Virus record (IMG/VR): IMGVR_UViG_3300045988_125874
Length of the DNA: 64,000 nt
Reading direction: 5' to 3' (one strand)
Source: a virus
Within the stretch, counting starts at the first letter, position 1; each line of letters begins with the position of its first letter. A program made the translations under genes and the position numbers. Below the pieces are notes generated by a model. That model searched no databases, was not told the DNA's origin, and saw nothing but the letters and a program-made list of their open reading frames with translations. Shown piece by piece: positions 26,292-57,954 of the stretch.

Positions 26292-27008
26292 TTAGTCCCA
26301 TCTCATAGCTTTTATCTTTTCCATGTTTTTCGGGTCGTCTGCATTGACAAATGTCCTGTCATTGGAAATACGGGCTTCTTTCTTTTCTTCGTCAGTAAGA
26401 TATACGGAAGTAATAGCATCTGCCATCAGCATTTGAAGAAATGAAAAACTAATTTCCCATACAATCTGCTGTGGAGTCATGTTGAGTTTTTCACATGCTG
26501 GTAATATTAAAGAACCAAATACGCTTTTACCGCCAAAAGTGATGGAATTGCCTTTCTTGTTTTTTATCATTGAAACTTTAGCTAGTTCTTTACGTTCCCG
26601 GTCAATCCCGAAATATTTGATAAACTCATCTGTATTATCTTTAGTAAGAACCATAACAAGAAGTTGAGCCATTTCTTCATTTGAAAGATTTTTCCTCAAA
26701 AACTGGCATCTGCTATTTACAATTCTGTTATTAAATAGTTCTTCTTTCTTGTTGAGTGTATGGTAAGATAATAGCTGGCAAACAATCTCTTTTTTTTCTT
26801 GGCATAATCTTAATGCTTCCATATATGGGTTTGCTTTAATAATATCAGCCTTCATATCAAGGCTTTCAATGAGCCTTGAAAGTAGATATGTTTTGCCCAA
26901 AGTTATTGGATATAGATAAAAATGTCGCTTATTGACCCGAAAGCCGTATGGTCTTTCCATTATGGTATCAGCGATATTCATTTCTATTATTTTTCTATTT
27001 TCGACCAT
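26292..27008 (-). CDS. Hypothetical protein; tail assembly chaperone candidate by position
   Basis: 238 aa, between the major tail and tape measure genes (interrupted by the moron). Confidence 0.4.
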   Translation of the reverse strand: MVENRKIIEMNIADTIMERPYGFRVNKRHFYLYPITLGKTYLLSRLIESLDMKADIIKANPYMEALRLCQEKKEIVCQLLSYHTLNKKEELFNNRIVNSRCQFLRKNLSNEEMAQLLVMVLTKDNTDEFIKYFGIDRERKELAKVSMIKNKKGNSITFGGKSVFGSLILPACEKLNMTPQQIVWEISFSFLQMLMADAITSVYLTDEEKKEARISNDRTFVNADDPKNMEKIKAMRWD

Positions 27009-27093
27009 ATACTATTACTTTTAGAAAATAAAATGGCTATCTTCACAGACTGCCAATTTCAGACATGAAAACAAATCAACTCATGATTTTTAG

Positions 27094-27165
27094 AGCGGAT
27101 TGATGGGCCTGCACCATCCCCTTCACTCTGGTAGAGCGACGCACGCCTGTGTGTGCTTAATCCGC
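27094..27165 (-). ncRNA. tRNA-like cloverleaf (71 nt + discriminator) with non-canonical U8 and T-loop; anticodon-loop equivalent CUACCAG
   Basis: Minus strand: GCGGATT-AA-GCAC-ACACAGGC-GTGC-G-TCGCT-CTACCAG-AGTGA-AGGG-GATGG-TGCAGGC-CCATC-AATCCGC-T. All four stems are fully paired. It sits in a GC-rich island within an AT-rich spacer. Confidence 0.55.
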
Positions 27166-27223: not shown

Positions 27224-27775
27224 TTATCCGCCTATTCCTGGATTAGGAGCAACTTCAAACTTGTCTCCATCGCCATCTTCGTCATCCGGGTCACATTCAA
27301 TTTTTGTAATAGGAGATCCTGTTGTAGGAGTAACAATAATTTTACCCCATTGGACTTGATTCTTATTAGCAGCAGATTTTAAGGCATCAAACGTATATGC
27401 CCAAACACCACCATCTGCACTAGTAAACGTATCTTCAACTGATACCGTTGTCTTTTCCATGCAAAATCCGGGAACTTCAGGATCTTCCGGTTGTAGTGCA
27501 ACAGCATAATTGTGAGCAACTACGCCATCACTGTCGCTGATAGGTCTTTTGCGCCCTTTTGCCGCACGTATGTTGACTACTAGGGCATAGGTGTTTTTAC
27601 CATACTTGACGTCTTCATTTTCTCCACCTTCAATTTTGGCTTCTTGCTTGTCGCCTTTTGTTGTTGTCAACTGTGTGGAATTTTCCACAGGTGTAGGAAG
27701 CTCTTCCCATTTGGGCGAAGTAGCATCCAGGTCTTTTACGAAAATTCGGGGTTTACCCCATCCGATTACTGCCAT
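27224..27775 (-). CDS. Major tail protein (by position and composition)
   Basis: 183 aa. First gene downstream of the head-tail joining genes and upstream of chaperone/tape measure. Confidence 0.6.
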   Translation of the reverse strand: MAVIGWGKPRIFVKDLDATSPKWEELPTPVENSTQLTTTKGDKQEAKIEGGENEDVKYGKNTYALVVNIRAAKGRKRPISDSDGVVAHNYAVALQPEDPEVPGFCMEKTTVSVEDTFTSADGGVWAYTFDALKSAANKNQVQWGKIIVTPTTGSPITKIECDPDDEDGDGDKFEVAPNPGIGG

Positions 27776-39486: not shown

Positions 39487-40998
39487 CTACAAAAAATCTT
39501 TGAGCAACTCTTCATCACTAATAAAGTTGTAATCTCTAGGATAAAACGTATTCGCTAATGCGTCCATATAGTCAGGAGAACGTTTGATACGTTTCTTGAC
39601 ATCTTCTTTAGGCTCAATGATAATCTTTCCATTACTAAGGAATTTCCATTTGGTTTCGGTAGCTTCCTCCATTAGTTGATCGCAGGGTGGGAGAGCAGCT
39701 CCAAAACCATTTTTAGGATTGAGCCAGTCACGTAAAGCCCAATATAGGTATGCTCTCATATTGGCAAATTCATATTCGCCAGTAATATCGTGTAAGCCAT
39801 CTGCACCTTCGGAATATTTACAAGAAAAAGCATTCCTACACTCTTCTTCTAGTAGCCTGGAATATACTCCAGCTCCTTCACCAATAGTATCAATAAACGC
39901 TTTTGCTCCTTTCTTCTTCAGGTAGGGAATCGTCATACCTACTACGTGCATGTGATCCGCACGTCCGGCAGATTGATGAACTTCAAATTGAGAAACGTAG
40001 TTACCGTATCGCGGACAAAGCACACTATTATCGCGTCCCATACCGGCAACGTCAACACCTAGCTTACAAGATTTGGCTGGGATGAAACCGCTTGCCTGTA
40101 ATTCCTGCCAATTCCTGTTTGCTATTTCTATCCATTCATAAGGAATAAGCACATCTTCAGAAACTTTCGGGAACATACCAAGTACCTTGACGCGAAACAA
40201 ATCGTTAGGCCGGTATAGCTTACCTTCCCAATTGAAATCGCCTTCTCCCTCGTTGAAATCTGTTCGCTGAATGGGGGAGCACCAATTTATCACCTTGTCC
40301 TTAACCCATTCATAATCCACTTGACCGGGTATTACTATTTGCTTCTTTACTACATTTTCTGCATTTAGAGAGCTAAGTCTGAATTTTGCAAAACGGTCAG
40401 ACTTCATGGCACGAGCTGCGTAACCAGTAGTAACATTAGGATTGAACACTATGAGAAAGCGAGAATTACCCTGTAAGTTACCCTCAATAGCGTTGTAAGT
40501 CGCTTCTGATATACCGGAAGCTTCAGTAACAACAAACATAGTATTTACAGCGTGGAAACCAGACCAAGCTTCCGTATTGTCGTCACCAGCTTTAAACCCT
40601 GTTAGGAACCACTCTTCGTAATCAGTTTTAATGCCGGAAGACAATAAGCGTCCGGGCAAGAACCCTGCATTTCTAAATAAGCGGGATATTTCAGGTATCA
40701 TGATATTTTGAACCTGACGGGCTGTAGGAGCCGTCATGGCAATCTTGGTATTCTTGACTAACTTACCTTCTTTCCAACGTGGAGTAAGATACATAAAACA
40801 CATAGATGCACAAGCCGCAATATAATCCTTTCCCCTTGCCGTGCCTGACGCTACAGCAGTCATTGGATTATGCTGAACGGATTGAAGAATGGCTTGTTGC
40901 TCTTTGTCTAACCTTGAATGAAGAACATCATGAGCGAATTTGCACCAATCCTCCCGCCATGCTTTCATGTATCTTATAGACTTGTCATCTTTGCTCAT
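39487..40998 (-). CDS. terL: Terminase large subunit
   Basis: 503 aa. N-terminal ATPase region (VASGTARGKD) and C-terminal nuclease-sized domain. Follows the small subunit with a 4-nt overlap. Confidence 0.85.
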   Translation of the reverse strand: MSKDDKSIRYMKAWREDWCKFAHDVLHSRLDKEQQAILQSVQHNPMTAVASGTARGKDYIAACASMCFMYLTPRWKEGKLVKNTKIAMTAPTARQVQNIMIPEISRLFRNAGFLPGRLLSSGIKTDYEEWFLTGFKAGDDNTEAWSGFHAVNTMFVVTEASGISEATYNAIEGNLQGNSRFLIVFNPNVTTGYAARAMKSDRFAKFRLSSLNAENVVKKQIVIPGQVDYEWVKDKVINWCSPIQRTDFNEGEGDFNWEGKLYRPNDLFRVKVLGMFPKVSEDVLIPYEWIEIANRNWQELQASGFIPAKSCKLGVDVAGMGRDNSVLCPRYGNYVSQFEVHQSAGRADHMHVVGMTIPYLKKKGAKAFIDTIGEGAGVYSRLLEEECRNAFSCKYSEGADGLHDITGEYEFANMRAYLYWALRDWLNPKNGFGAALPPCDQLMEEATETKWKFLSNGKIIIEPKEDVKKRIKRSPDYMDALANTFYPRDYNFISDEELLKDFL

Positions 40999-41360
40999 TC
41001 TTCATCGTCTGGCAATTCTTGCATTAATTTCTCAAATGGATTAATATTCAAATCTTGCTCTACTTTTTCAACGTAACCGCGATGCTTCATTTTAGTCTTA
41101 CTTAACCAAATAAGCATGGTGTTATCTTGTTCCGTCAAAGCTTTAGCAAACATTGTCGTTTCTAGCTTATCATAGAAACTTTCTTCTACTTCTTTCCATT
41201 TTTCGGCAAAATCTGGATCATTCGATTTCCATTTATAAGCAATGGAGCGTGAGATTTCTACAGCTTCACAAGCTGCGGTAACATTCAGCATCCTTGCTTC
41301 CAATGCTTTTAAAAACTTAGCTTTCTTTTGCCTTGTATTAAGCCTGTACTTCTGTGCCAT
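40995..41360 (-). CDS. terS: Terminase small subunit (HTH)
   Basis: LNVTAACEAVEISRSIAYKWKSNDPDFAEKWKE. Immediately upstream of terL. Confidence 0.7.
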   Translation of the reverse strand: MAQKYRLNTRQKKAKFLKALEARMLNVTAACEAVEISRSIAYKWKSNDPDFAEKWKEVEESFYDKLETTMFAKALTEQDNTMLIWLSKTKMKHRGYVEKVEQDLNINPFEKLMQELPDDEE

Positions 41361-42048
41361 CTTTACTTCCCTCCAATACATTATTCACAATTTCCAACAT
41401 TTTGCATATACTCAAAGCCTGTGCTTTGATTTTGTATTTCGCCTGAACTTTTGCGGATACTTCATTTAATCGATACATTGTTTCCATGTCCAATAAAGTA
41501 AGGTTGCCAAGTTCTTTTTCTGAATAGCAATCCAATGTTTCCATTAATTTGTCAAATGAGACTTTCTGTGTATCTACAAACATAAGAGTTACTGGAACAA
41601 TTTCATTATTCGGCATTTCAACTGTATAGTTGATGTCTTTAACGCTTTCTAGTACTTCATTACTGATATGCGCATACTCTTTCAGTGCGACATCCGTTAT
41701 TTCATCAAGAAGCTGTTTTATTATCTCTTGATCATCTTGACCGTTTATCGAATTTGCGCTTAACTGAATAGCCCGTATTTCATCATTGGAAATATCTTTT
41801 TCATTAATATACATAATATGACATGATGTCAAACCAGCCATATTTGCCGCTTGTATTCTATGGTTCCCAGAAACAACAGTATAAGTTCCGTTGTCATGTT
41901 CAACACAAAATGGGACGCTGCTTAACTGGCCATCTCTACGAATATTATTCACGAGTTGGTTAAACATGGATTGCTCCATAAATCTTGCATTCTTCTTTAT
42001 CAACTTGATAGAAGAAAGCGGAACTTCTCTTATTTGAAACTGCTTCAT
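41338..42048 (-). CDS. ParB N-terminal-domain (ParB-like nuclease) protein; start at MKQFQIREV
   Basis: IREVPLSSIKLIKKNARF ... TVVSGNHRIQAANMAGL. The chosen start abuts the stop of the upstream HNH gene. Confidence 0.7.
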   Translation of the reverse strand: MKQFQIREVPLSSIKLIKKNARFMEQSMFNQLVNNIRRDGQLSSVPFCVEHDNGTYTVVSGNHRIQAANMAGLTSCHIMYINEKDISNDEIRAIQLSANSINGQDDQEIIKQLLDEITDVALKEYAHISNEVLESVKDINYTVEMPNNEIVPVTLMFVDTQKVSFDKLMETLDCYSEKELGNLTLLDMETMYRLNEVSAKVQAKYKIKAQALSICKMLEIVNNVLEGSKDGTEVQA

Positions 42049-42052
42049 ATTT

Positions 42053-42796
42053 TTATTCTTTAAATTTCCAAATAAATCCTCCTGCTGTATGGTATCTTGG
42101 TCTTTTCCTACAGCACATACCAATATTGGCACTACATACTCCTGTTTTTCTTGATGCGTCCATAATAGAATTATATTCATTCAATAAATCACCATTAGAA
42201 TTATATTGAAGAACCCTACGTACTTTTAGCTCTATCTTTATCTTCTTGGGAAATTCTTCTGATATTTTGCGACACCAATAGAAACTACCTGCATGGTACT
42301 GCTTTCCATTTATACATTGATTTATAGAAGTGTTTAGTACTCCTGTTATTCTTTCGGCTTCTGCACCAGAGTTATACTCTTTTAAGAAATTACCATCCAA
42401 ATCATATTGTAAAACCGGAATAGAACAAATTTCTTTTGTCTTTATATTTCTATTTCCATATTGGCAATTATACTTATGTGTACAAAATTCCAAATTATCG
42501 ACTGTATTATTATTTTTACATTCATCCTTATGATTGACTTCTGTAAGATTTAAAGGATTATCTAAAAAAGTTTCAGCTATTACTTTATGTACATAAAAAC
42601 GCTTGACTACATTATTCTTGCATAAACACAGGAATAGGTATCCTTTTTTATTATCACGAGGTAGCAATATTTTACCGCTATAGAATCTTCTTCCACCTTT
42701 GTATGGGACAACCCTATCTAAGGAGCGTATTCTACCTAAAGACGATGCTTGATATAAACCTTCGTACCCCTTAATATTTTTCCAAATTTCATCCAT
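42053..42796 (-). CDS. HNH homing endonuclease (NUMOD4 + HNH + two NUMOD1/IENR1-like repeats)
   Basis: WKNIKGYEGLYQASSLGRIRS; VNHKDECKNNNTVDNLEFCTHKYN; duplicated VLQY(D/N)..G.(F/L)L.EYNS module. Confidence 0.8.
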   Translation of the reverse strand: MDEIWKNIKGYEGLYQASSLGRIRSLDRVVPYKGGRRFYSGKILLPRDNKKGYLFLCLCKNNVVKRFYVHKVIAETFLDNPLNLTEVNHKDECKNNNTVDNLEFCTHKYNCQYGNRNIKTKEICSIPVLQYDLDGNFLKEYNSGAEAERITGVLNTSINQCINGKQYHAGSFYWCRKISEEFPKKIKIELKVRRVLQYNSNGDLLNEYNSIMDASRKTGVCSANIGMCCRKRPRYHTAGGFIWKFKE

Positions 42797-42800
42797 ACAT

Positions 42801-44888
42801 TTATTCCTTTCTCGGCTCATCACCGTATTTTTCTACAAATGCTTTTAAAATATCATCTAAGTTGCCACGAATACCTGCATCTTGTATGTAATGGAGTTTA
42901 CCAACGCAACGTTCATGTAATTTGAATACACCACGATATTTCATACTTACAGGTTTATCGGTGAACACGGAAGTAGCAATAACACCACATTGATGTTTAT
43001 ATCTTATATCCAGTTCTGATTTAAATTCTGATGAAAGAACGCCCATTATTAGCAATCGGCTCAACTTAGGCAGAGGGTGGTCTATGACAAAATCCGATTT
43101 CATCCAAACTGCATCCATGCCGTATTTGCTGACCTTCAGGAAGTCAAACATACAAGCTCCGAACACGTAATCATCCAAGAACCACAAATAACAGAACGGA
43201 GCTGATCCGAGTATGATGCCTTTCTTCAAGTAAATCATGCGCAGATAATCAATTTCTGCCATAGAAGCACGAACAAACCGGAGTTTGCTATTATTTGTAA
43301 GTACGTAATCGTCTGGCAACCGTTTATATTTTAGAGGGATGATAGTCCGCTTGTTAAAACTGCTGTCTCCACTTTCTACCACATTAGACCAAATATATGT
43401 GCGTTGGTCTTTGAATACCTCTCTTCTGCCCATAAATCCATGCTGCGAGAGAGCCATGTAATTAACTTGTTCTTCATCTATTTCTGCATATTTCGTTTTA
43501 GTTCGTTCTTGAGATCCAAAATCATCCAATAAGAAACGCTGTAATGCGTTGCTTGTGGCTTTCATACCGGAATGAAATTCATTCTGATAGATCAATATGT
43601 CATTCTCTTTGCAGTTAAGAATTGCATCTGATATATCAGCACAATAAAATACTTCAATAGACTTACTTTTAAGGCTGTCTACGAGCTTTTGGTAACGTTC
43701 CGTATACTTCTTATGGTAATGCTCCAATTTTGCCATAAAATCGTCATAAAGCGACTTATGGTAAATATCTTGTGAGTTCTTATGCTTCTTGATGGCATTG
43801 AACAGATGGATAGTGGCAATAATTTCAGCCGGACTTTCAGACTTGATATTCAGAAACTCATATTCATCATTAAAACGCAGTTCTTTTATCTCTCCCTTGA
43901 TTGCCTTATACATCATGTAGATAAAATACTCCTTTGTATACACCTTAATCTCACGGTTGGTAAGTATTTGCTCTATATCCATATAGTATGAGTTTACCAC
44001 ATGAGCAATATCAAATTTGGCCGCTTCTTTCTTGATGAAGGAAAGCATACGATTAGTTTTCTTAAACATGGAGCCTACTATCGTAACATTGTCCGAGTGT
44101 TCTGCTGCCCAAAGTAACGGTTTATGTCTTTGGGGAACCTTGGAATAGTCTATATGGAATGTCTCAAGACATTTGTCAATAGTGGTGAGTTGCTTATACT
44201 CTTCTATGTCTTCATGTAGGTAGGCATATTCTACAAATGAATACATGAATTTGATTGTTTCCAGCACCTTGTCGAAGTCCCATGAACTATTGAAGATACG
44301 GAATTCTGCTGTTCCTATCTTTTCAATAGAACATAAGTTGAGCCAGTACCGGATATGTCCTCTATCTGACCCATTACTAAAAACTTTCAGTAAATTCTCA
44401 ATATTATCTGCTTCAAGAACTCGTTTTACAACATCCCAAGGTGGACTGGGTACGAGATATTTTGTTTCCCACCACTCGGCAATGTCAAATATTCGTTTGA
44501 TTGGATAAGCGGTGTAGTAGGAGAGGGCAAACAAACGTTTGATAACATTCAAGTCCATATCTTTGATGTATAGATGTGCATCAAAACCTTCATTCCACAT
44601 GAGATAACTTCCTGCATCTCTCATGGTCTGAATAAAATTCTTCAACTCCTGCAAATCTTCTATACAATAATGGTATGGGCGTGTGTTTATTTCCCCGCCA
44701 AATTGACCGTGATGCGTAACTGCCGATCCATCCGAGTTATTCATCATGGTTAGCTTGTTATCCGTCCACTTGTAACCCGATGGAAGAGGAATGTGCTCTT
44801 TATCACCATCAGCGAACTCCAGTTCCATGCCAAATGTGCGATTGGCTATATAGTCAATCCACGGTTTATCTATATTCGTGTTCTGCAT
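42801..44888 (-). CDS. Large protein with an N-terminal amidoligase-like (Amidoligase_2 / GS-like) domain and about 450 aa of unknown function
   Basis: RTFGMELEF ... NNSDGSAVTHHGQFGGEINTRP fits the amidoligase pattern (G.E.Ef ... DgS ... gg.Ei.sp). Confidence 0.55.
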   Translation of the reverse strand: MQNTNIDKPWIDYIANRTFGMELEFADGDKEHIPLPSGYKWTDNKLTMMNNSDGSAVTHHGQFGGEINTRPYHYCIEDLQELKNFIQTMRDAGSYLMWNEGFDAHLYIKDMDLNVIKRLFALSYYTAYPIKRIFDIAEWWETKYLVPSPPWDVVKRVLEADNIENLLKVFSNGSDRGHIRYWLNLCSIEKIGTAEFRIFNSSWDFDKVLETIKFMYSFVEYAYLHEDIEEYKQLTTIDKCLETFHIDYSKVPQRHKPLLWAAEHSDNVTIVGSMFKKTNRMLSFIKKEAAKFDIAHVVNSYYMDIEQILTNREIKVYTKEYFIYMMYKAIKGEIKELRFNDEYEFLNIKSESPAEIIATIHLFNAIKKHKNSQDIYHKSLYDDFMAKLEHYHKKYTERYQKLVDSLKSKSIEVFYCADISDAILNCKENDILIYQNEFHSGMKATSNALQRFLLDDFGSQERTKTKYAEIDEEQVNYMALSQHGFMGRREVFKDQRTYIWSNVVESGDSSFNKRTIIPLKYKRLPDDYVLTNNSKLRFVRASMAEIDYLRMIYLKKGIILGSAPFCYLWFLDDYVFGACMFDFLKVSKYGMDAVWMKSDFVIDHPLPKLSRLLIMGVLSSEFKSELDIRYKHQCGVIATSVFTDKPVSMKYRGVFKLHERCVGKLHYIQDAGIRGNLDDILKAFVEKYGDEPRKE

Positions 44889-45744
44889 ATCTCAACTTGA
44901 CTAATGATTTATAATCAGGGACAAAACGAACCACATCACCAATGTGATAATCCGAAACATGGTCACATTGCATTATTGTATATTCGCTGGAGCTATCTAC
45001 ATACTTCAAATTGGTATAATAGGGAATTCTGCATTTAGCCATGTCCGCCATTGAATAACCGCAATCGAGAATGAGTTGATTACGCTCTGGATAGATGCCT
45101 ATTATTCTTGTTTGTAGTTCTATCCCATTAAAGCCTTTTTTCTCTTCATTATTGCAATATGGAATAGTGCCAAACAGCATATATTCTCCTATTCGCACAT
45201 CACTTATGAAGTTTGGAAGTTTGTCATACTGTCCGAGCCAAAAACTTCCTCCTAAACTGATGGATTCAATATATCCTTTTAGGTTGTCCCAGATGTCGTA
45301 TAATCGCGACATTGGCGGGTATTTGTCATTGAGGCAACCGGAAGTAATCATACCGTATATATGAGCATCTGAAAGCATCCTTATTTCGTTAGCTAGTTTG
45401 CTTGCTTCATAAATGCTTAAACCTTCTCTGTTATCGTAAGCGTCAATTGGAATGTAGTAGTTGTGTATTCCTTGGCAACCCTCTCCATTAATAGTGAGAT
45501 ATTTCCAAGAGTCAGCAAATGATGTTACTACTGCACCTATATTATCTTTTGTCGCTTTCCCAATAGAATAACATACGCTATCTTTCAAATGTAACCCGAA
45601 AATCTTATTTCTTATTTTATCCGCTATATGCTCATGAATATCTTCATAGAAGTCCTTAAACATTAATGAAATGGGAACATTAACAAACGATTGCGCCTTT
45701 TCAATGTTCTCTATTATATTCTTGGTATAGACAATAACTTTCAT
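44866..45744 (-). CDS. Alanine-racemase-fold (PLP-dependent, predicted amino-acid racemase-like) protein
   Basis: ISLGGSFWL ... VRIGEYMLFG ... LILDCGYSMADM resemble the COG3457/YhfX-type racemase fold. ATGA overlap with the GNAT gene. Confidence 0.4.
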   Translation of the reverse strand: MKVIVYTKNIIENIEKAQSFVNVPISLMFKDFYEDIHEHIADKIRNKIFGLHLKDSVCYSIGKATKDNIGAVVTSFADSWKYLTINGEGCQGIHNYYIPIDAYDNREGLSIYEASKLANEIRMLSDAHIYGMITSGCLNDKYPPMSRLYDIWDNLKGYIESISLGGSFWLGQYDKLPNFISDVRIGEYMLFGTIPYCNNEEKKGFNGIELQTRIIGIYPERNQLILDCGYSMADMAKCRIPYYTNLKYVDSSSEYTIMQCDHVSDYHIGDVVRFVPDYKSLVKLRYAEHEYR

Positions 45745-46640
45745 AGCTCCCACTTTAAGATTAAACGTTCAATCCCTTTGTATTTGGTATCACGTTTGAA
45801 CGAGAACCCGGCATTGGTAAAACTCTTGATACTTGCTTCATTTTTGGGTGAGGTCATGGCAAATACCTCTTGTGCACCGTTTGAAACCAATTTTGCAAGA
45901 TTAGCATTGAGTAGAATGTACTGAAAGCTATTACCCCTATAATCTGAACGAACGAAACATTTATCTACGTAGGCAGTACCGTATTCAGTGAAATATGCAA
46001 GCGAATAAGCAACCAGCTTATCATTTGTCAATAATCCGTAACTGCAACCAGATTGCAAGCACTTGACTATATCTTCCGGTTCCGAAGCGAAACACATATC
46101 AGGATCAGAGAGCAACTTTTGCTCAATTTCTTCTATGGTAGTAATGTCAGACATAGATAAAGCTTTCACTTGCATATTGTATTCTATGCTTCCTTTATGC
46201 GTCGGGAACAATGGTTCGTAACGGTCAATCCATGCTTTAGAAAGGAATGTGTCTATATCGACTTTAGGCAATAATGCTTTTCTATAATTGTCGAAAATGT
46301 CTAGTACAAATTCTTTATGCTTAGTAAGTTGCTCATTTTTCAACGGACATTTACTGCTACGGAAAACAAGACCTTTTTTTACCGACTTTACCCACAAAGG
46401 ATAAGTTCTACACATGATAGGTTTGTAGCCATTATCACATGATTTACAGTCTTTAGCGATACATTTAATCTTTTTACCGCCAAAGTAATCATCATCTATA
46501 ATCTGTAAATGGGAGATTTCTTTTTCATACCCGTCAAGTTCATGGGGGAGAATTACAATATGTCCGTCCGATCCGAACGAACAACACTTCCAACCGCAGC
46601 CGGAGTTTTCACATGCTCTTATTAGTCCTTTTTCGTCCAT
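45741..46640 (-). CDS. Fusion of a CxxCxxCC (YkgJ-type Zn/Fe-chelating) domain and a GNAT acetyltransferase domain
   Basis: N-terminus: CENSGCGWKCC ... KPIMCRTYPLW. C-terminus: FVRSDYRGNSFQYILL ... SPKNEASIKSFTNAGF. Confidence 0.65.
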   Translation of the reverse strand: MDEKGLIRACENSGCGWKCCSFGSDGHIVILPHELDGYEKEISHLQIIDDDYFGGKKIKCIAKDCKSCDNGYKPIMCRTYPLWVKSVKKGLVFRSSKCPLKNEQLTKHKEFVLDIFDNYRKALLPKVDIDTFLSKAWIDRYEPLFPTHKGSIEYNMQVKALSMSDITTIEEIEQKLLSDPDMCFASEPEDIVKCLQSGCSYGLLTNDKLVAYSLAYFTEYGTAYVDKCFVRSDYRGNSFQYILLNANLAKLVSNGAQEVFAMTSPKNEASIKSFTNAGFSFKRDTKYKGIERLILKWEL

Positions 46641-46709: not shown

Positions 46710-46865
46710 CTAAATACAAATCCATCATTTTTCAAGCTACTTGCAAGAACACTTATGCAATCTATTCGGCTTCTTTACAGTCGTGTCAGATGGCAATTTC
46801 CATCACCCCGTAAACTGCACAAGCTTTAATGCTCTTGTTTTCGCTTATCGCTACTATAAGGGTTG

Positions 46866-47052
46866 AGGGATAAGCAGGATTCGAACCTGCACAAGTATCG
46901 TCTGCTTTCTCGTTTTCGTCCGTAGATTGGTTATCCTACGATCTTTAAACTACTCGACCTGTTACTAACAGCCGGTCTTGATGACATCCATTCTTATGTA
47001 CACTTGGAACTTCCGTTCATTTAGTCTTAGCTCCCTATGACCATTTTATCCC
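46866..47052 (-). tRNA. Oversized tRNA-like gene A (187 nt): canonical acceptor, D-like arm and T-arm with about 120 nt between the D- and T-arms
   Basis: 5' GGGATAA pairs with 3' TTATCCC. D-like arm TGGTC-12 nt-GACTA. T-arm GCAGG-TTCGAAT-CCTGC. The 5' end lies 4 nt after gene B. Confidence 0.45.
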
Positions 47053-47056
47053 TTAG

Positions 47057-47207
47057 TAGTGGTAGCAGGATTCGAACCTGCATGATAGGAGTTATTTTGC
47101 TGTTACATTTAAAAACAGCCATGCCCGTTTATTTTTACAACCTTAGCCTAGGGTTAACCTATCTATAAACATGTCACTTTAGCGTCTACTAATTCCGCCA
47201 TACCACC
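47057..47207 (-). tRNA. Oversized tRNA-like gene B (151 nt): Leu-type 5' half, canonical T-arm, about 105 nt in between
   Basis: GGTGGTA-TG-GCG-GAATTAGTAGA-CGC resembles tRNA-Leu. Also ...GCAGG-TTCGAAT-CCTGC-TACCACT-A and internal hairpin GCTGTT-TTTAAATGT-AACAGC. Confidence 0.45.
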
Positions 47208-47251
47208 AAATTTGCGTGTCTTTCCACGCTGTCAGATTGTTTGCAGTACCA

Positions 47252-47326
47252 ACTAAATGCAAGGAATCGAACCTTGTCGCTTACTTTACACAACCTCAAT
47301 CAACGAGCCGAGTTTAACGGCATTCG
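47252..47326 (-). tRNA. Degenerate tRNA-like element C (75 nt): good T-arm, imperfect acceptor, irregular D and anticodon arms (possible pseudo-tRNA)
   Basis: T-arm CAAGG-TTCGATT-CCTTG. Acceptor TCGAATG/CATTTAG has 5 pairs. Only 3-bp hairpins where the D and anticodon arms should be. Confidence 0.3.
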
Positions 47327-47396
47327 AGCGGAAACAGGGAATCGAACCCCACTCTTTGGCTGGAATGCCAACGCTCTACCGATGAGCTATTTCCGC
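47327..47396 (-). tRNA. tRNA with a Gly-like acceptor but a non-standard anticodon arm (TTGGC-ATTCCA-GCCAA: 6-nt loop, or 8-nt with a 4-bp stem)
   Basis: GCGGAAA-TA-GCTC-ATCGGTA-GAGC-G-TTGGC-ATTCCA-GCCAA-AGAG-TGGGG-TTCGATT-CCCTG-TTTCCGC. Confidence 0.7.
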
Positions 47397-47456: not shown

Positions 47457-47837
47457 CTATTGACGGTTGGCTAATAATTCCGGATTGTCATAAATATTAC
47501 CTGCATATCTAATTCCGAACATATCTATCATTTGTCCTATTGGTTTGTTCCCAAGATTTTGAGACAGAACTTCTAATAGCACAAAAGAACCGATTTTATC
47601 ACTATACACTACCTCACATAATACGCCAGCACATTCAACTAAATCATGCTCATATATTTCTTTCCCGCTCTTGTCACACAAGCCGGTGAACTGCCCAAGA
47701 GTATTTTCGTCTATTTTTTCAACGTCATTATCGTGCAACCAAGTTCCATCTCCATCTTGAATAAGCGTATAAGAATCTCTTATCCATCCCTTACCATCAA
47801 TGCGCTTCCCTCTAAACTTAATCCTTCTCATACTCAA
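47457..47837 (-). CDS. YopX-family protein
   Basis: IKFRGKRIDGKGW ... LGQFTGLCDKSGKEIYEHDLV ... GNIYDNPELL. Confidence 0.75.
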   Translation of the reverse strand: MSMRRIKFRGKRIDGKGWIRDSYTLIQDGDGTWLHDNDVEKIDENTLGQFTGLCDKSGKEIYEHDLVECAGVLCEVVYSDKIGSFVLLEVLSQNLGNKPIGQMIDMFGIRYAGNIYDNPELLANRQ

Positions 47838-48238
47838 AATAAACTTGCTTGTTCGTATTTAGGTTCCTTTTTCTCAACTACTCCGAACTCTGTTATTTCA
47901 ATGCCAGTCTTTTCAGTAAGCCATTTTGCCAAAATATGACGATGGCAGAAATCACCCGGTTTTTCGTAACAGCATAGAGCGACATCTTTACCTTCACTGT
48001 GTCGTTGGATAGTTTGAATCAATTCTTGCGGATTGACTTTTGCAAGAACATCATTCAAATACATACTCGTGTACTCTTCATAAGTCCATTTGTCATCTAA
48101 CATATATCTTCTTGGTGCAACCTCTATAATTTGAGGTGCGTTATAAAATTTTGGTCTGCCTAAAGCGACACATATCATTTTGATGTTCGCTGCTGCCAGT
48201 TTTCTGTAATTTCCAAAATATGATGTATAAATCCTCAT
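47834..48238 (-). CDS. DUF488-family protein (start at MRIYTSYF)
   Basis: MRIYTSYFGNYRK ... VALCCYEKPGDFCHRHILAKWL. Confidence 0.7.
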   Translation of the reverse strand: MRIYTSYFGNYRKLAAANIKMICVALGRPKFYNAPQIIEVAPRRYMLDDKWTYEEYTSMYLNDVLAKVNPQELIQTIQRHSEGKDVALCCYEKPGDFCHRHILAKWLTEKTGIEITEFGVVEKKEPKYEQASLF

Positions 48239-48252
48239 TGCTTTAATTTTAT

Positions 48253-48293
48253 GGTGTAAAGATACAAAAAGTGGCGTAAATTCAATCACTTTT
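48253..48293 (-). promoter_or_regulatory. Conserved promoter/operator, copy 3 of 4
   Basis: Minus strand AAAAGTGATTGAATTTACGCCACTTTTTGTATCTTTACACC. Confidence 0.55.
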
Positions 48294-57471: not shown

Positions 57472-57954
57472 CTAATTGATTCGTATATACTTACCTGCGA
57501 TATCGCAAGTTCTTAATATATCGGCATTATCTTCGCCGAAAGCGATTAGGATACTTCCGCAACCGGGCGAATCTCCACGAGTCCCATCAGGTCGGAAGAA
57601 CCTAATCCGGTTACGTAGAAATTTCATAGCTGTTGCTTTTTCAAAGATGACATCTTGGAACATCTTACTATCGCAGCGGTTGAATAGTAGAGCGATGCCG
57701 TTACCGTGTTCTGCCAGACGTTTAACGAAACGTTCTATTAGAGGACGGGAGTAAGGTGGATTTAGCCAAACACGACCTACCCAATCTTTAGTTAATCCGT
57801 CATGGTTCTTGTTGTACATTTGTGTAGCTGTTTGCCAAAGCGGTTTAACCGGAGCGCATGGATCTAAATCGAACTTTCCCAATGCGTCTATAATTTCTTT
57901 TGGCGTGTACCATTCATCGGTGGTATTAACCGATTTCTCAAAGGTTGTATTCAT
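57472..57954 (-). CDS. dam: Phage-type DNA N6-adenine methyltransferase
   Basis: DEWYTPKEIIDALGKFDLDPCA and WLNPPYS (NPPY catalytic motif). Confidence 0.8.
   Translation of the reverse strand: MNTTFEKSVNTTDEWYTPKEIIDALGKFDLDPCAPVKPLWQTATQMYNKNHDGLTKDWVGRVWLNPPYSRPLIERFVKRLAEHGNGIALLFNRCDSKMFQDVIFEKATAMKFLRNRIRFFRPDGTRGDSPGCGSILIAFGEDNADILRTCDIAGKYIRIN

Follow-up and report, generated by a model that had tools for sequence, protein, structure and literature searches.

Hypermodification of DNA that depends on tRNA is known so far from 1 enzyme, Mom (2026), a GNAT-fold protein that moves glycine from Gly-tRNAGly to the N6 position of adenine in double-stranded DNA (dsDNA) (Silva et al. 2026, PMC13219725). 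The product rearranges on the base, the acceptor end is probably the part of the tRNA that is mainly recognized, and its model contains a flipped deoxyadenosine (dA) (PMC13219725). The thymidine hypermodification clusters form another described group, with 5-HMUDK, aGPT-Pplase/AADT, a pyridoxal 5'-phosphate (PLP) decarboxylase, a radical S-adenosylmethionine enzyme (rSAM), an FAD lyase, and an acetyltransferase (Lee et al. 2021, PMC8989533), along with amidoligase genes of unknown role (PMC8989533). Further, for orphan phage ParB-like proteins it has been shown that they switch on the DNA base-modifying enzyme cognate to them, and that this activation is specific to dsDNA (PNAS, 2026; PMC13229309). 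Here, we analyzed 3 adjacent genes, gA, gB, and gC, at positions 42801-46640 of a 64,000-nucleotide stretch of viral DNA (the window; IMG/VR record IMGVR_UViG_3300045988_125874), which comes from a gut Bacteroidales phage whose gA-gB-gC are late genes. We propose that they make up the variable portion, combining tailoring and transferase functions, of a larger late-gene cassette for post-replicative modification. By analogy with Mom, the cassette may depend on Gly-tRNA to hypermodify phage DNA with an adduct based on glycine, a reading to which we give about an even chance.

Operon layout and the Dam-like/GNAT-like core

The interval is filled exactly by 3 co-oriented minus-strand open reading frames (ORFs): gA (46640..45741, 299 aa), gB (listed as 45753..44866 from a GTG codon, 295 aa), and gC (44888..42801, 695 aa). 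Because homologs of gB begin with MKV, its actual start is the ATG at 45744. The junction between the gA stop and the gB start reads ...CTATGAAA, an ATGA overlap, and gB and gC overlap by 23 nt (ATGCAGAACACGAATATAGATAA). These coordinates and both overlaps agree, in the ORF list and the junction sequence, with those given by an initial annotation made from the sequence alone.

The structure model of gC (predicted local distance difference test score, pLDDT, 87.5) has 3 domains. The first (aa 1-245; 44154..44888, minus strand) is a glutamine-synthetase-like amidoligase, as the initial annotation had recognized: a match to Pfam Amidoligase_2 (PF12224) spans aa 64-218 with 33.7 bits against a cut-off of 22, and the fold matches many phage "amidoligase" proteins in BFVD. 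Residues E22, E24, N51, G64, E66, N68, T69, R70, H105, R180, E195, and R197 are invariant in an alignment of 24 sequences reaching down to 28% identity. Judging from the family, the acidic, histidine, and arginine residues among them probably have a catalytic role (metal, ATP, or acyl-phosphate).

The remaining ~450 aa, which the initial annotation could not assign and for which it suggested profile and structure searches of aa 240-695, are accounted for by a Dam-like and a GNAT-like domain. The Dam-like domain (aa ~268-500; 43389..44087, minus strand) is degenerate. It matches Pfam DAM-like-phage1 (PF22555) with 26.2 bits (E 5.7e-6), just below the cut-off of 27; the same family is precomputed on the 95%-identical protein P0001, and DAM-like-phage2 (PF22556) on distant gC orthologs. 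Foldseek matched the domain to E. coli Dam and to DpnM with a probability of 0.98-0.99 and a low TM-score. Dam-family enzymes carry a motif I, FxGxG, that binds S-adenosylmethionine (SAM), and a motif IV, (D/N/S)PP(Y/F/W), which is DPPY in Dam. In gC, motif I reads VVNSYY and motif IV reads L-I-Y-Q-N-E-F-H, with Y-Q-N-E-F replacing DPPY, and relatives that consist of the Dam-like and GNAT-like domains only have G-C-S-G-N-F and h-F/Y/L-P-P-T-Y, the Asp/Asn being missing. With the SAM-binding and DPPY motifs lost, an active Dam methyltransferase was ruled out for gC.

The third domain (aa ~501-695; 42801..43388, minus strand) is a phage-specific GNAT-like domain, matching Pfam GNAT-phage-like (PF22559) with 91.5 bits against a cut-off of 27 (E 6.9e-26). 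Its Foldseek matches with a probability of 1.0 include the N-terminal acetyltransferases Naa60 and Naa50 and, lower down, Mom of phage Mu (8bv8); it also matches a Salmonella-phage Mom model in BFVD. D599, L609-S610, and S648-M-K-Y-R-G653 are invariant across phyla, within the motifs S-D-F, L-S-K-L, and S-M-K-Y-R-G. The canonical coenzyme A (CoA) motif Q/R-x-x-G-x-G/A after beta-4 is absent in gC, where the segment is a glycine-free P-K-L-S-(R/K)-L. On its modeled fold, we propose that this domain is an aminoacyl or acyl transferase.

A profile search of 1.8 billion cluster representatives identified 1378 representatives of the gC family at E<=1e-3, about 25 of them with all 3 domains; most members are Dam-like + GNAT-like proteins of 430-460 aa. 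Prophage copies of the cassette were identified across many bacterial phyla and in 1 archaeon. Among GenBank phages, the operon had no match at the DNA level, and at the protein level a two-domain relative was present in only 15 actinophages. IMG/VR contained 191 relatives of gC, many from human-gut samples, and 80 of these loci were kept for gene-order comparison; a 95%-identical relative is annotated only as "amidoligase enzyme." The order of the 3 genes is not due to chance, as it is kept in all 80 loci and in prophages down to 25-30% identity. One natural protein, P0210, combines 4 domains (GNAT, amidoligase, Dam-like, and GNAT-like), and by placing an ordinary GNAT ahead of the amidoligase, it supports a functional link between gA and gC. 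The initial annotation had read the overlaps as the sign of a single functional unit. With the overlapping genes, synteny kept down to 28% identity, the P0210 fusion, and amino-acid enzymes that are swapped at fixed slots, we reach the same conclusion.

Two other variants combine the Dam-like domain with nucleases: in P0291, the Dam-like + GNAT-like protein is fused to a REase_MTES_1575/DUF559 nuclease, and in P0311, an HNH endonuclease splits the Dam-like domain. In the 169 loci that were fetched, local profile searches identified a ParB-like gene immediately downstream of the Dam-like/GNAT-like gene in 167 of them and a DUF488 homolog near it in 133. From these linkages, the conserved core is the Dam-like/GNAT-like gene plus the ParB-like gene, often with DUF488. 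The ParB-like linkage spans Bacteroidota, Actinobacteria phages, Proteobacteria, Nitrospirota, Bacillus, and an archaeon. In the window, the ParB-like protein (ParB/Srx fold with an SGNHR motif; Pfam ParB_N; phrog_7405, E 2e-55) is encoded at 41338..42048 on the minus strand, with M45 of the listed ORF as its probable start. It is 41% identical (E 2e-28) to gp29 of Gordonia phage Sting, which comes next after the Dam-like/GNAT-like gene of Sting, gC being merely 22% identical to its own Sting counterpart; Mycobacterium phage Jeon carries the same Dam-like/GNAT-like and ParB-like pair. Nucleic-acid modification, to which the initial annotation had pointed from the position of the operon, is thus the best-supported role, on the strength of the fold matches of gC to Dam/DpnM and to Mom, the restriction endonuclease (REase)-fused relatives, and the orthologous ParB-like gene that nearly always adjoins.

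tRNA-Gly-like RNAs of the cassette

Upstream of gA, at 47326..47396 on the minus strand, the window carries a tRNA-Gly-like gene that ARAGORN reports as "tRNA-???" with anticodon (tc) and that scores 53 bits against the Rfam tRNA model and 80 bits against our covariance model R1. Its anticodon loop has 6 nt (AUUCCA), against the standard 7 nt able to decode, and the element is also present in close relatives and in locus L073. The identity set of bacterial glycyl-tRNA synthetase (GlyRS) comprises G1:C72, C2:G71, G3:C70, U73, C35, and C36. All of these, together with A37, are invariant in an alignment of the window gene with 15 cassette-linked tRNA-Gly genes, and in these 16 genes, 16 of the 22 stem pairs of the cloverleaf show covariation. 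Abnormal loops recur, with AUUCCA in the window, L073, and L094, ACACCA in L099, and an odd loop in L097. Glycylation identity is thus conserved, while the decoding side has been damaged repeatedly. We propose that the window RNA serves as a dedicated carrier of glycine.

In 82 diverse loci (L088-L169), ARAGORN found 18 tRNA genes, comprising 13 tRNA-Gly (mostly UCC), 3 Gly-like genes with odd loops, and 2 others. In Bacteroidota cassettes of the amidoligase type, these genes have the orientation of the cassette and are placed between DUF488 and the cassette gene that follows, and a weak covariance hit in L003 falls exactly between DUF488 and a Cys-rich ORF. In Jeon, a tRNA-Gly(UCC) immediately upstream abuts the Dam-like/GNAT-like gene, and in Sting, a degenerate Gly-like element lies directly upstream of gp28. 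Among two-domain loci, tRNA-Gly was identified 1-4 kb upstream in L116 and L162 and downstream of the cassette in L163. All 30 hits of a covariance model built from the cassette tRNAs have the same orientation as the cassette. Degenerate minimal forms are among them, some lying upstream of two-domain systems of Proteobacteria, Planctomycetota, and other groups. A crude acceptor/T-arm scan gave 33 same-strand and 12 opposite-strand hits; as shuffled sequences also yield hits (0.2 per locus, both strands), only the same-strand excess is meaningful. An origin of the tRNA as a prophage attachment-site remnant was rejected, because the gene is complete, lies inside the late operon, and has counterparts in the actinophages Jeon and Sting.

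The RNA could instead be the scaffold or the target of the chemistry, with N-acyl- or peptidyl-glycyl-tRNA giving rise to a small molecule, a protein tag, or a decoy or poison. This would account for tRNA-Gly-like genes that are embedded in the cassette with anticodon loops unfit for decoding, and it has parallels in known GNATs that either acetylate Gly-tRNAGly, as TacT does, or draw on aminoacyl-tRNA to make peptides and natural products (PMC13219725). Amidoligases, ATP-grasp ligases, opine dehydrogenases, and PLP enzymes, all present in one version of the cassette or another, are likewise typical of small-molecule chemistry. However, such a role leaves the Dam-like domain, the near-obligate ParB-like partner, and the REase fusions unexplained, and many two-domain systems occur without any amino-acid tailoring enzyme; we consider it distinctly unlikely, its decoy or poison variant, aimed at host translation or at tRNA-targeting defenses, included. 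The initial annotation had named DNA or the aberrant tRNAs as possible substrates. The analogy with Mom favors the tRNA as donor of the glycyl group over the tRNA as substrate (PMC13219725).

An elaboration of the DNA-modification reading, which we hold only tentatively and rate as rather unlikely, would make the non-decoding tRNA-Gly-like RNA a carrier. A peptide- or opine-like unit would be built on Gly-tRNA by the amidoligase, ATP-grasp, opine dehydrogenase, PLP enzyme, and GNAT and then be moved to a flipped DNA base in a ParB-activated, Dam-like-guided transfer. This would amount to a ribosome-independent, tRNA-borne "peptidyl-DNA" hypermodification with lineage-specific adduct chemistry.

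Several other tRNA-like elements were observed. In L122, L140, L144, L146, and L148, alphaproteobacterial prophages with the two-domain system, 63-nt minimal tRNA-like RNAs (GCGGGCGG...GCCCGC-U-CCA), which are among the same-strand hits of the acceptor/T-arm scan, lie ~4-5 kb upstream; they have a Gly-type acceptor stem and an encoded CCA and no recognizable D arm. In the window, a second Gly-identity element at 27093-27165 (minus strand), in the gap between the ORFs 26292..27008 and 27224..27775, has a GCG...CGC-U acceptor, the loop CUACCAG, and non-canonical D and T loops; it was found by the cassette covariance model (51 bits, E ~1e-9) and missed by ARAGORN and Rfam. Two aberrant tRNA-like elements lie between the Gly-like tRNA and gA on the minus strand. 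In the one at ~47058-47213 (Rfam tRNA 23.9 bits, below threshold), a D arm of the Leu/Ser type (TGGCGGAATTAGTAGACGC) is accompanied by an acceptor stem of 7 bp and an insertion of ~80 nt, and the one at ~46865-46960 repeats the same T arm (GCAGGTTCGAATCCTGC).

Tailoring enzymes and neighboring genes

gB (44866..45744, minus strand) is predicted to be a fold-type-III PLP enzyme resembling alanine racemase, D-Ser dehydratase, and D-Thr aldolase. Its AlphaFold2 model (pLDDT 89.9) matched D-Ser dehydratase, D-threo-3-hydroxyaspartate dehydratase, Ala racemase, and D-Thr aldolase in Foldseek with E 1e-11 to 1e-12 and TM ~0.72 (3anv, 3wqc, 4a3q, 7yqa, and 4v15, TMq 0.70-0.74), all sharing the TIM-barrel + beta-domain fold. 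K33, in the motif M-F-K-D-F-Y right after the strand 28-32 and at the position of the Schiff-base lysine, is invariant in 31 gB sequences, as are R109, G168-G169-S170, R187, and Y258. Sequence profiles gave a weak Pfam D-ser_dehydrat match and, as the sole NCBIfam match, a weak one to Orr (ornithine racemase, E 1.7e-7); Ala_racemase_N is recorded on the L093 ortholog, and homologs are named "type III PLP-dependent enzyme" or "predicted amino acid racemase." The alanine-racemase fold of the initial annotation is thereby supported by the model, its Foldseek matches, and the invariant lysine; PLP binding and a racemase, aldolase, or dehydratase activity are predictions.

The initial annotation had described gA as a YkgJ-type domain fused to a GNAT. 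The second half of this holds: the C-terminal part (aa ~165-299; 45741..46148, minus strand) matches Pfam Acetyltransf_1 above the curated cut-off (E 6.1e-7) as well as PHROG acetyltransferase families, and a GNAT of this type directly upstream of the PLP gene is conserved across cassettes of the window type. The N-terminal Cys-rich domain (aa 1-150; 46191..46640, minus strand) has 8 invariant Cys (C10, C15, C19, C20, C60, C68, C77, and C98) and 2 invariant His in the alignment. Its Cys pattern resembles that of YkgJ/CxxCxxCC proteins, which have 2 Cys clusters, CxxCxxCC ... C..C..RP..CR.(F/Y)P. The YkgJ assignment found no hidden Markov model (HMM) support and is unproven: neither the isolated gA domain nor its L003 homolog matched Pfam CxxCxxCC (PF03692) at E<=10, and in an hhalign comparison with a true PF03692 protein, encoded after ParB in L092, the Cys motifs align with E 0.02 and a probability of 2%. 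The domain is accessory, being a separate ORF in L003-L005 and absent from many sister cassettes. Sequence searches of gA, gB, and gC against the PDB returned nothing useful.

The tailoring genes differ between lineages. In type I, the type of the window, the order is [Cys-rich] - GNAT - PLP enzyme - gC. In type II (L094-L101, L109, and L164), an octopine/nopaline-type opine dehydrogenase replaces the GNAT and the PLP enzyme, and 1-2 D-Ala-D-Ala-ligase-like ATP-grasp genes follow ParB; L109 is an incomplete contig in which only the ORF after ParB is preserved, and its place in type II is provisional. L093 combines a PLP enzyme with an ATP-grasp gene, and L092 has the true CxxCxxCC gene mentioned above. 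What the accessory enzymes have in common is that each acts on the amino or carboxyl groups of amino acids, by coupling or altering them. Among the close relatives L008-L087, gC is 88-100% identical, whereas identity falls to 60-67% for gB and to 78-84% for the gA GNAT. These drops do not run parallel to gC (in L047, for example, gC 93% and gB 60%), which suggests, from these sequence comparisons, recombinational swapping or diversification of the tailoring genes.

This enzyme set, with an Ala-racemase fold in gB and Ddl-like ATP-grasp ligases in sister cassettes, also resembles stem-peptide chemistry. FemXAB proteins of Staphylococcus are GNAT-fold transferases that take glycine from dedicated, non-proteinogenic tRNA-Gly isoacceptors poorly suited to translation, so a tRNA-Gly would suit a cell-wall role as well. 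The cassette might then remodel peptidoglycan precursors, or aminoacylate a protein of the host or the phage, for example in superinfection exclusion or host takeover; phage amidoligases have loosely been proposed to act on the cell surface (PMC11318856). We regard this as very improbable, as the genes lie in the late packaging operon and not among lysis or early genes, and the Dam-like fold, the ParB partner, and the REase fusions speak against it. Thymidine hypermodification, which the initial annotation had brought up, was set aside and is unlikely: among the ORFs scanned (39-64 kb), 5-hydroxymethyldeoxyuridine (5-hmdU) kinase, aGPT-Pplase/AADT, deoxyuridine monophosphate (dUMP) hydroxymethylase, and TET/JBP were not seen.

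Of the genes around the operon, DUF488 lies upstream at 47834..48238 (minus strand), with M18 of the listed ORF 48289..47834 as its probable start, and matches Pfam PF22751 ("active DUF488-N3 subclade," E 4.8e-10) and also PF04343; DUF488 directly adjoins the cassette in L006, L076, L102, and L145. The DUF488 protein also matches the PADLOC candidate defense models PDC-M19A and PDC-M45 (E 1e-8 to 5e-3), so its relatives occur on the host-defense side too; gA, gB, gC, and the ParB-like protein had no match among the PADLOC defense models. Downstream, an HNH/NUMOD homing endonuclease gene (42053..42823, minus strand; Pfam NUMOD4, NUMOD1, and HNH_3, and PHROG HNH families) sits between gC and the ParB-like gene and overlaps both ORFs. 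As only L029 and L031 of 87 loci share this position, we take it to be a recent mobile insertion at the operon junction and rejected it as a component of the system. The neighborhood survey that the initial annotation had called for thus supports the operon and widens its extent, since the ParB-like, DUF488, and tRNA-Gly-like genes belong with 42801-46640. A separate, ordinary phage Dam-family N6-adenine methyltransferase gene (57472-57954, minus strand; Pfam PF05869, E 1.4e-14) was also observed, so the phage may methylate adenine independently of the cassette.

The small and large terminase subunit genes (40995-41381 and 39487-40998, minus strand) follow the ParB-like gene. In Bacteroidota versions, they are co-transcribed downstream of the cassette; terminase Pfam families occupy the equivalent position in L001, the order is conserved across loci, and the ORFs at 1-39 kb of the window look structural by size and order. 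No terminator-like site was identified between gA and the end of TerL (~39400), the first such sites coming after TerL, and a promoter scan, whose coverage leaves out Bacteroidetes promoters, gave no excess over shuffles. This arrangement, with all Bacteroidota cassettes directly upstream of terS-terL, would be expected if the cassette and the terminase acted together on packaging termini, DUF488 and ParB processing or binding the DNA end and gC attaching a cap derived from an amino acid that blocks host exonucleases. The presence of DUF488, which belongs to the rhodanese-phosphatase superfamily, near most of the fetched cassettes fits this as well; DUF488-clade enzymes were reportedly predicted by Burroughs and Aravind in 2023 to process DNA ends within virus-host nucleic-acid-modifying systems. 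However, Jeon and Sting do not show the pair beside a terminase gene, DUF488 is absent from about one-fifth of the loci, a Dam-like fold is suited to internal base access, and REase fusions fit modification or restriction at the level of the base. A DNA-end role is therefore, in our judgment, improbable.

Proposed mechanism and comparison with known systems

What was observed are the identities of the domains, the linkage and fusions of the genes, and the conservation both of catalytic-type residues and of tRNA identity. From these, we infer the following steps, with their target base and purpose, for Gly-tRNA-dependent DNA hypermodification. First, a cassette tRNA-Gly-like RNA, which carries the identity elements, or a host tRNA-Gly would be charged by host GlyRS. 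Second, the GNAT-like domain of gC would take Gly-tRNA as donor, as Mu Mom does, while the degenerate Dam-like domain would bind DNA and present a flipped base, probably for modification at adenine N6; folds, fusions, and context point in this direction. Third, given its near-universal adjacency and the precedent of 5mYOX-ParB, the ParB-like protein may load or activate the enzyme on dsDNA. Fourth, the ATP-dependent amidoligase could ligate an amino acid to the free glycyl alpha-amine, on the tRNA or on the DNA, with gB supplying a D- or otherwise altered amino acid (in stereochemistry or side chain) and gA N-acetylating; sister lineages would instead use the opine dehydrogenase for reductive alkylation of the amine or ATP-grasp ligases for its extension. 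Finally, the bulky adducts would protect packaged DNA from host nucleases, and DUF488 may process an RNA or DNA terminus.

Several observations weigh against this mechanism. In the PDB, the profile of the GNAT-like domain matched neither a GNAT nor a Mom chain at E<=10, and a phmmer search with gC gave none either; with no sequence relation to Mom or solved GNATs and no Q/RxxGxG/A motif, donor and acceptor are guesses. Since the Dam-like domain lacks the SAM-binding and DPPY motifs, base flipping is an assumption. No tRNA gene was identified in the cassettes of L001, L006, the L076 group, L092, L103, and L164, which would therefore need host tRNA-Gly, and tRNA-Gly(UCC) is not rare in phages generally. 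Further, DUF488 and the location of the cassette just ahead of the terminase genes would be compatible with a DNA-end or packaging-linked role as well, and amidoligase, racemase-like, and Ddl-like enzymes are part of the peptidoglycan and peptide-metabolism toolkit too.

The initial annotation did not recognize the gene combination as a described pathway. It is not wholly undescribed, as its domain families are in Pfam. Pfam has curated families with phage-specific names for the domains of gC and for the subclade of DUF488, which shows that the core of the cassette has already been noticed computationally, presumably by Burroughs and Aravind in 2023, whose study we take to be the source of PF22555, PF22556, PF22559, and PF22751. 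In the literature, we found no experimental work on the gC family, and searches with the Pfam names gave no match. A link of this family to tRNA-Gly, to amidoligase, PLP, or opine-dehydrogenase variants, or to Mom-type chemistry is not mentioned in the works compared, the 2023 study by Burroughs and Aravind lying outside this comparison.

If the proposed mechanism is true, the cassette would be a second, evolutionarily independent, and far more elaborate case of tRNA-dependent DNA hypermodification, bringing new DNA adduct chemistries for the evasion of restriction and CRISPR to abundant human-gut Bacteroidales phages. It would also assign a role to the orphan ParB-like and DUF488 proteins of phages, account for a class of phage tRNA genes that look "aberrant," and provide enzymes for site-directed DNA derivatization. 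Among the testable parts of the cassette are the RNA as proposed donor, the ParB-like protein as proposed activator, and tailoring enzymes that can be swapped.

Compared with known systems, gC, its orthologs, and DUF488 match the models of the Pfam families PF22555, PF22556, PF22559, and PF22751. With FemXAB, the cassette shares a GNAT fold and a dedicated tRNA-Gly, whereas the FemXAB acceptor is a peptidoglycan precursor and no DNA-related domains are present there. The thymidine hypermodification clusters are likewise combinatorial phage gene sets, and they append amino acids to bases and tailor them with PLP enzymes and a GNAT; in contrast, the core of the cassette is the Dam-like/GNAT-like protein, and activation would probably proceed through aminoacyl-tRNA and acyl-phosphate and not through phosphorylated 5-hmdU. 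As in the phage thymine dioxygenases that depend on ParB (5mYOX-ParB; PMC13229309), an orphan ParB-like gene lies beside a presumed base-modifying enzyme in nearly every locus of the family, but the partner there is an iron/2-oxoglutarate (Fe/2OG) dioxygenase, here a Dam-like/GNAT-like protein, and the requirement for ParB is established for 5mYOX only. With Mu Mom, the cassette shares a GNAT fold, Mom structures being among the fold matches of gC, and a late phage function. The tRNA-Gly link is experimental for Mom and genomic for the cassette, and the acceptor end that Mom probably reads is the part conserved in the cassette RNAs. In contrast to Mom, which has a helix-turn-helix (HTH)-like insertion and works alone, the GNAT-like domain of the cassette has no sequence homology to it, is fused to a Dam-like domain, and is always accompanied by a ParB-like protein. 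It often comes with a tRNA-like RNA of its own and is joined by enzymes for amide formation and tailoring. The cassette is thus not a member of the Mom family by sequence and not an active Dam, but it may well work like Mom.

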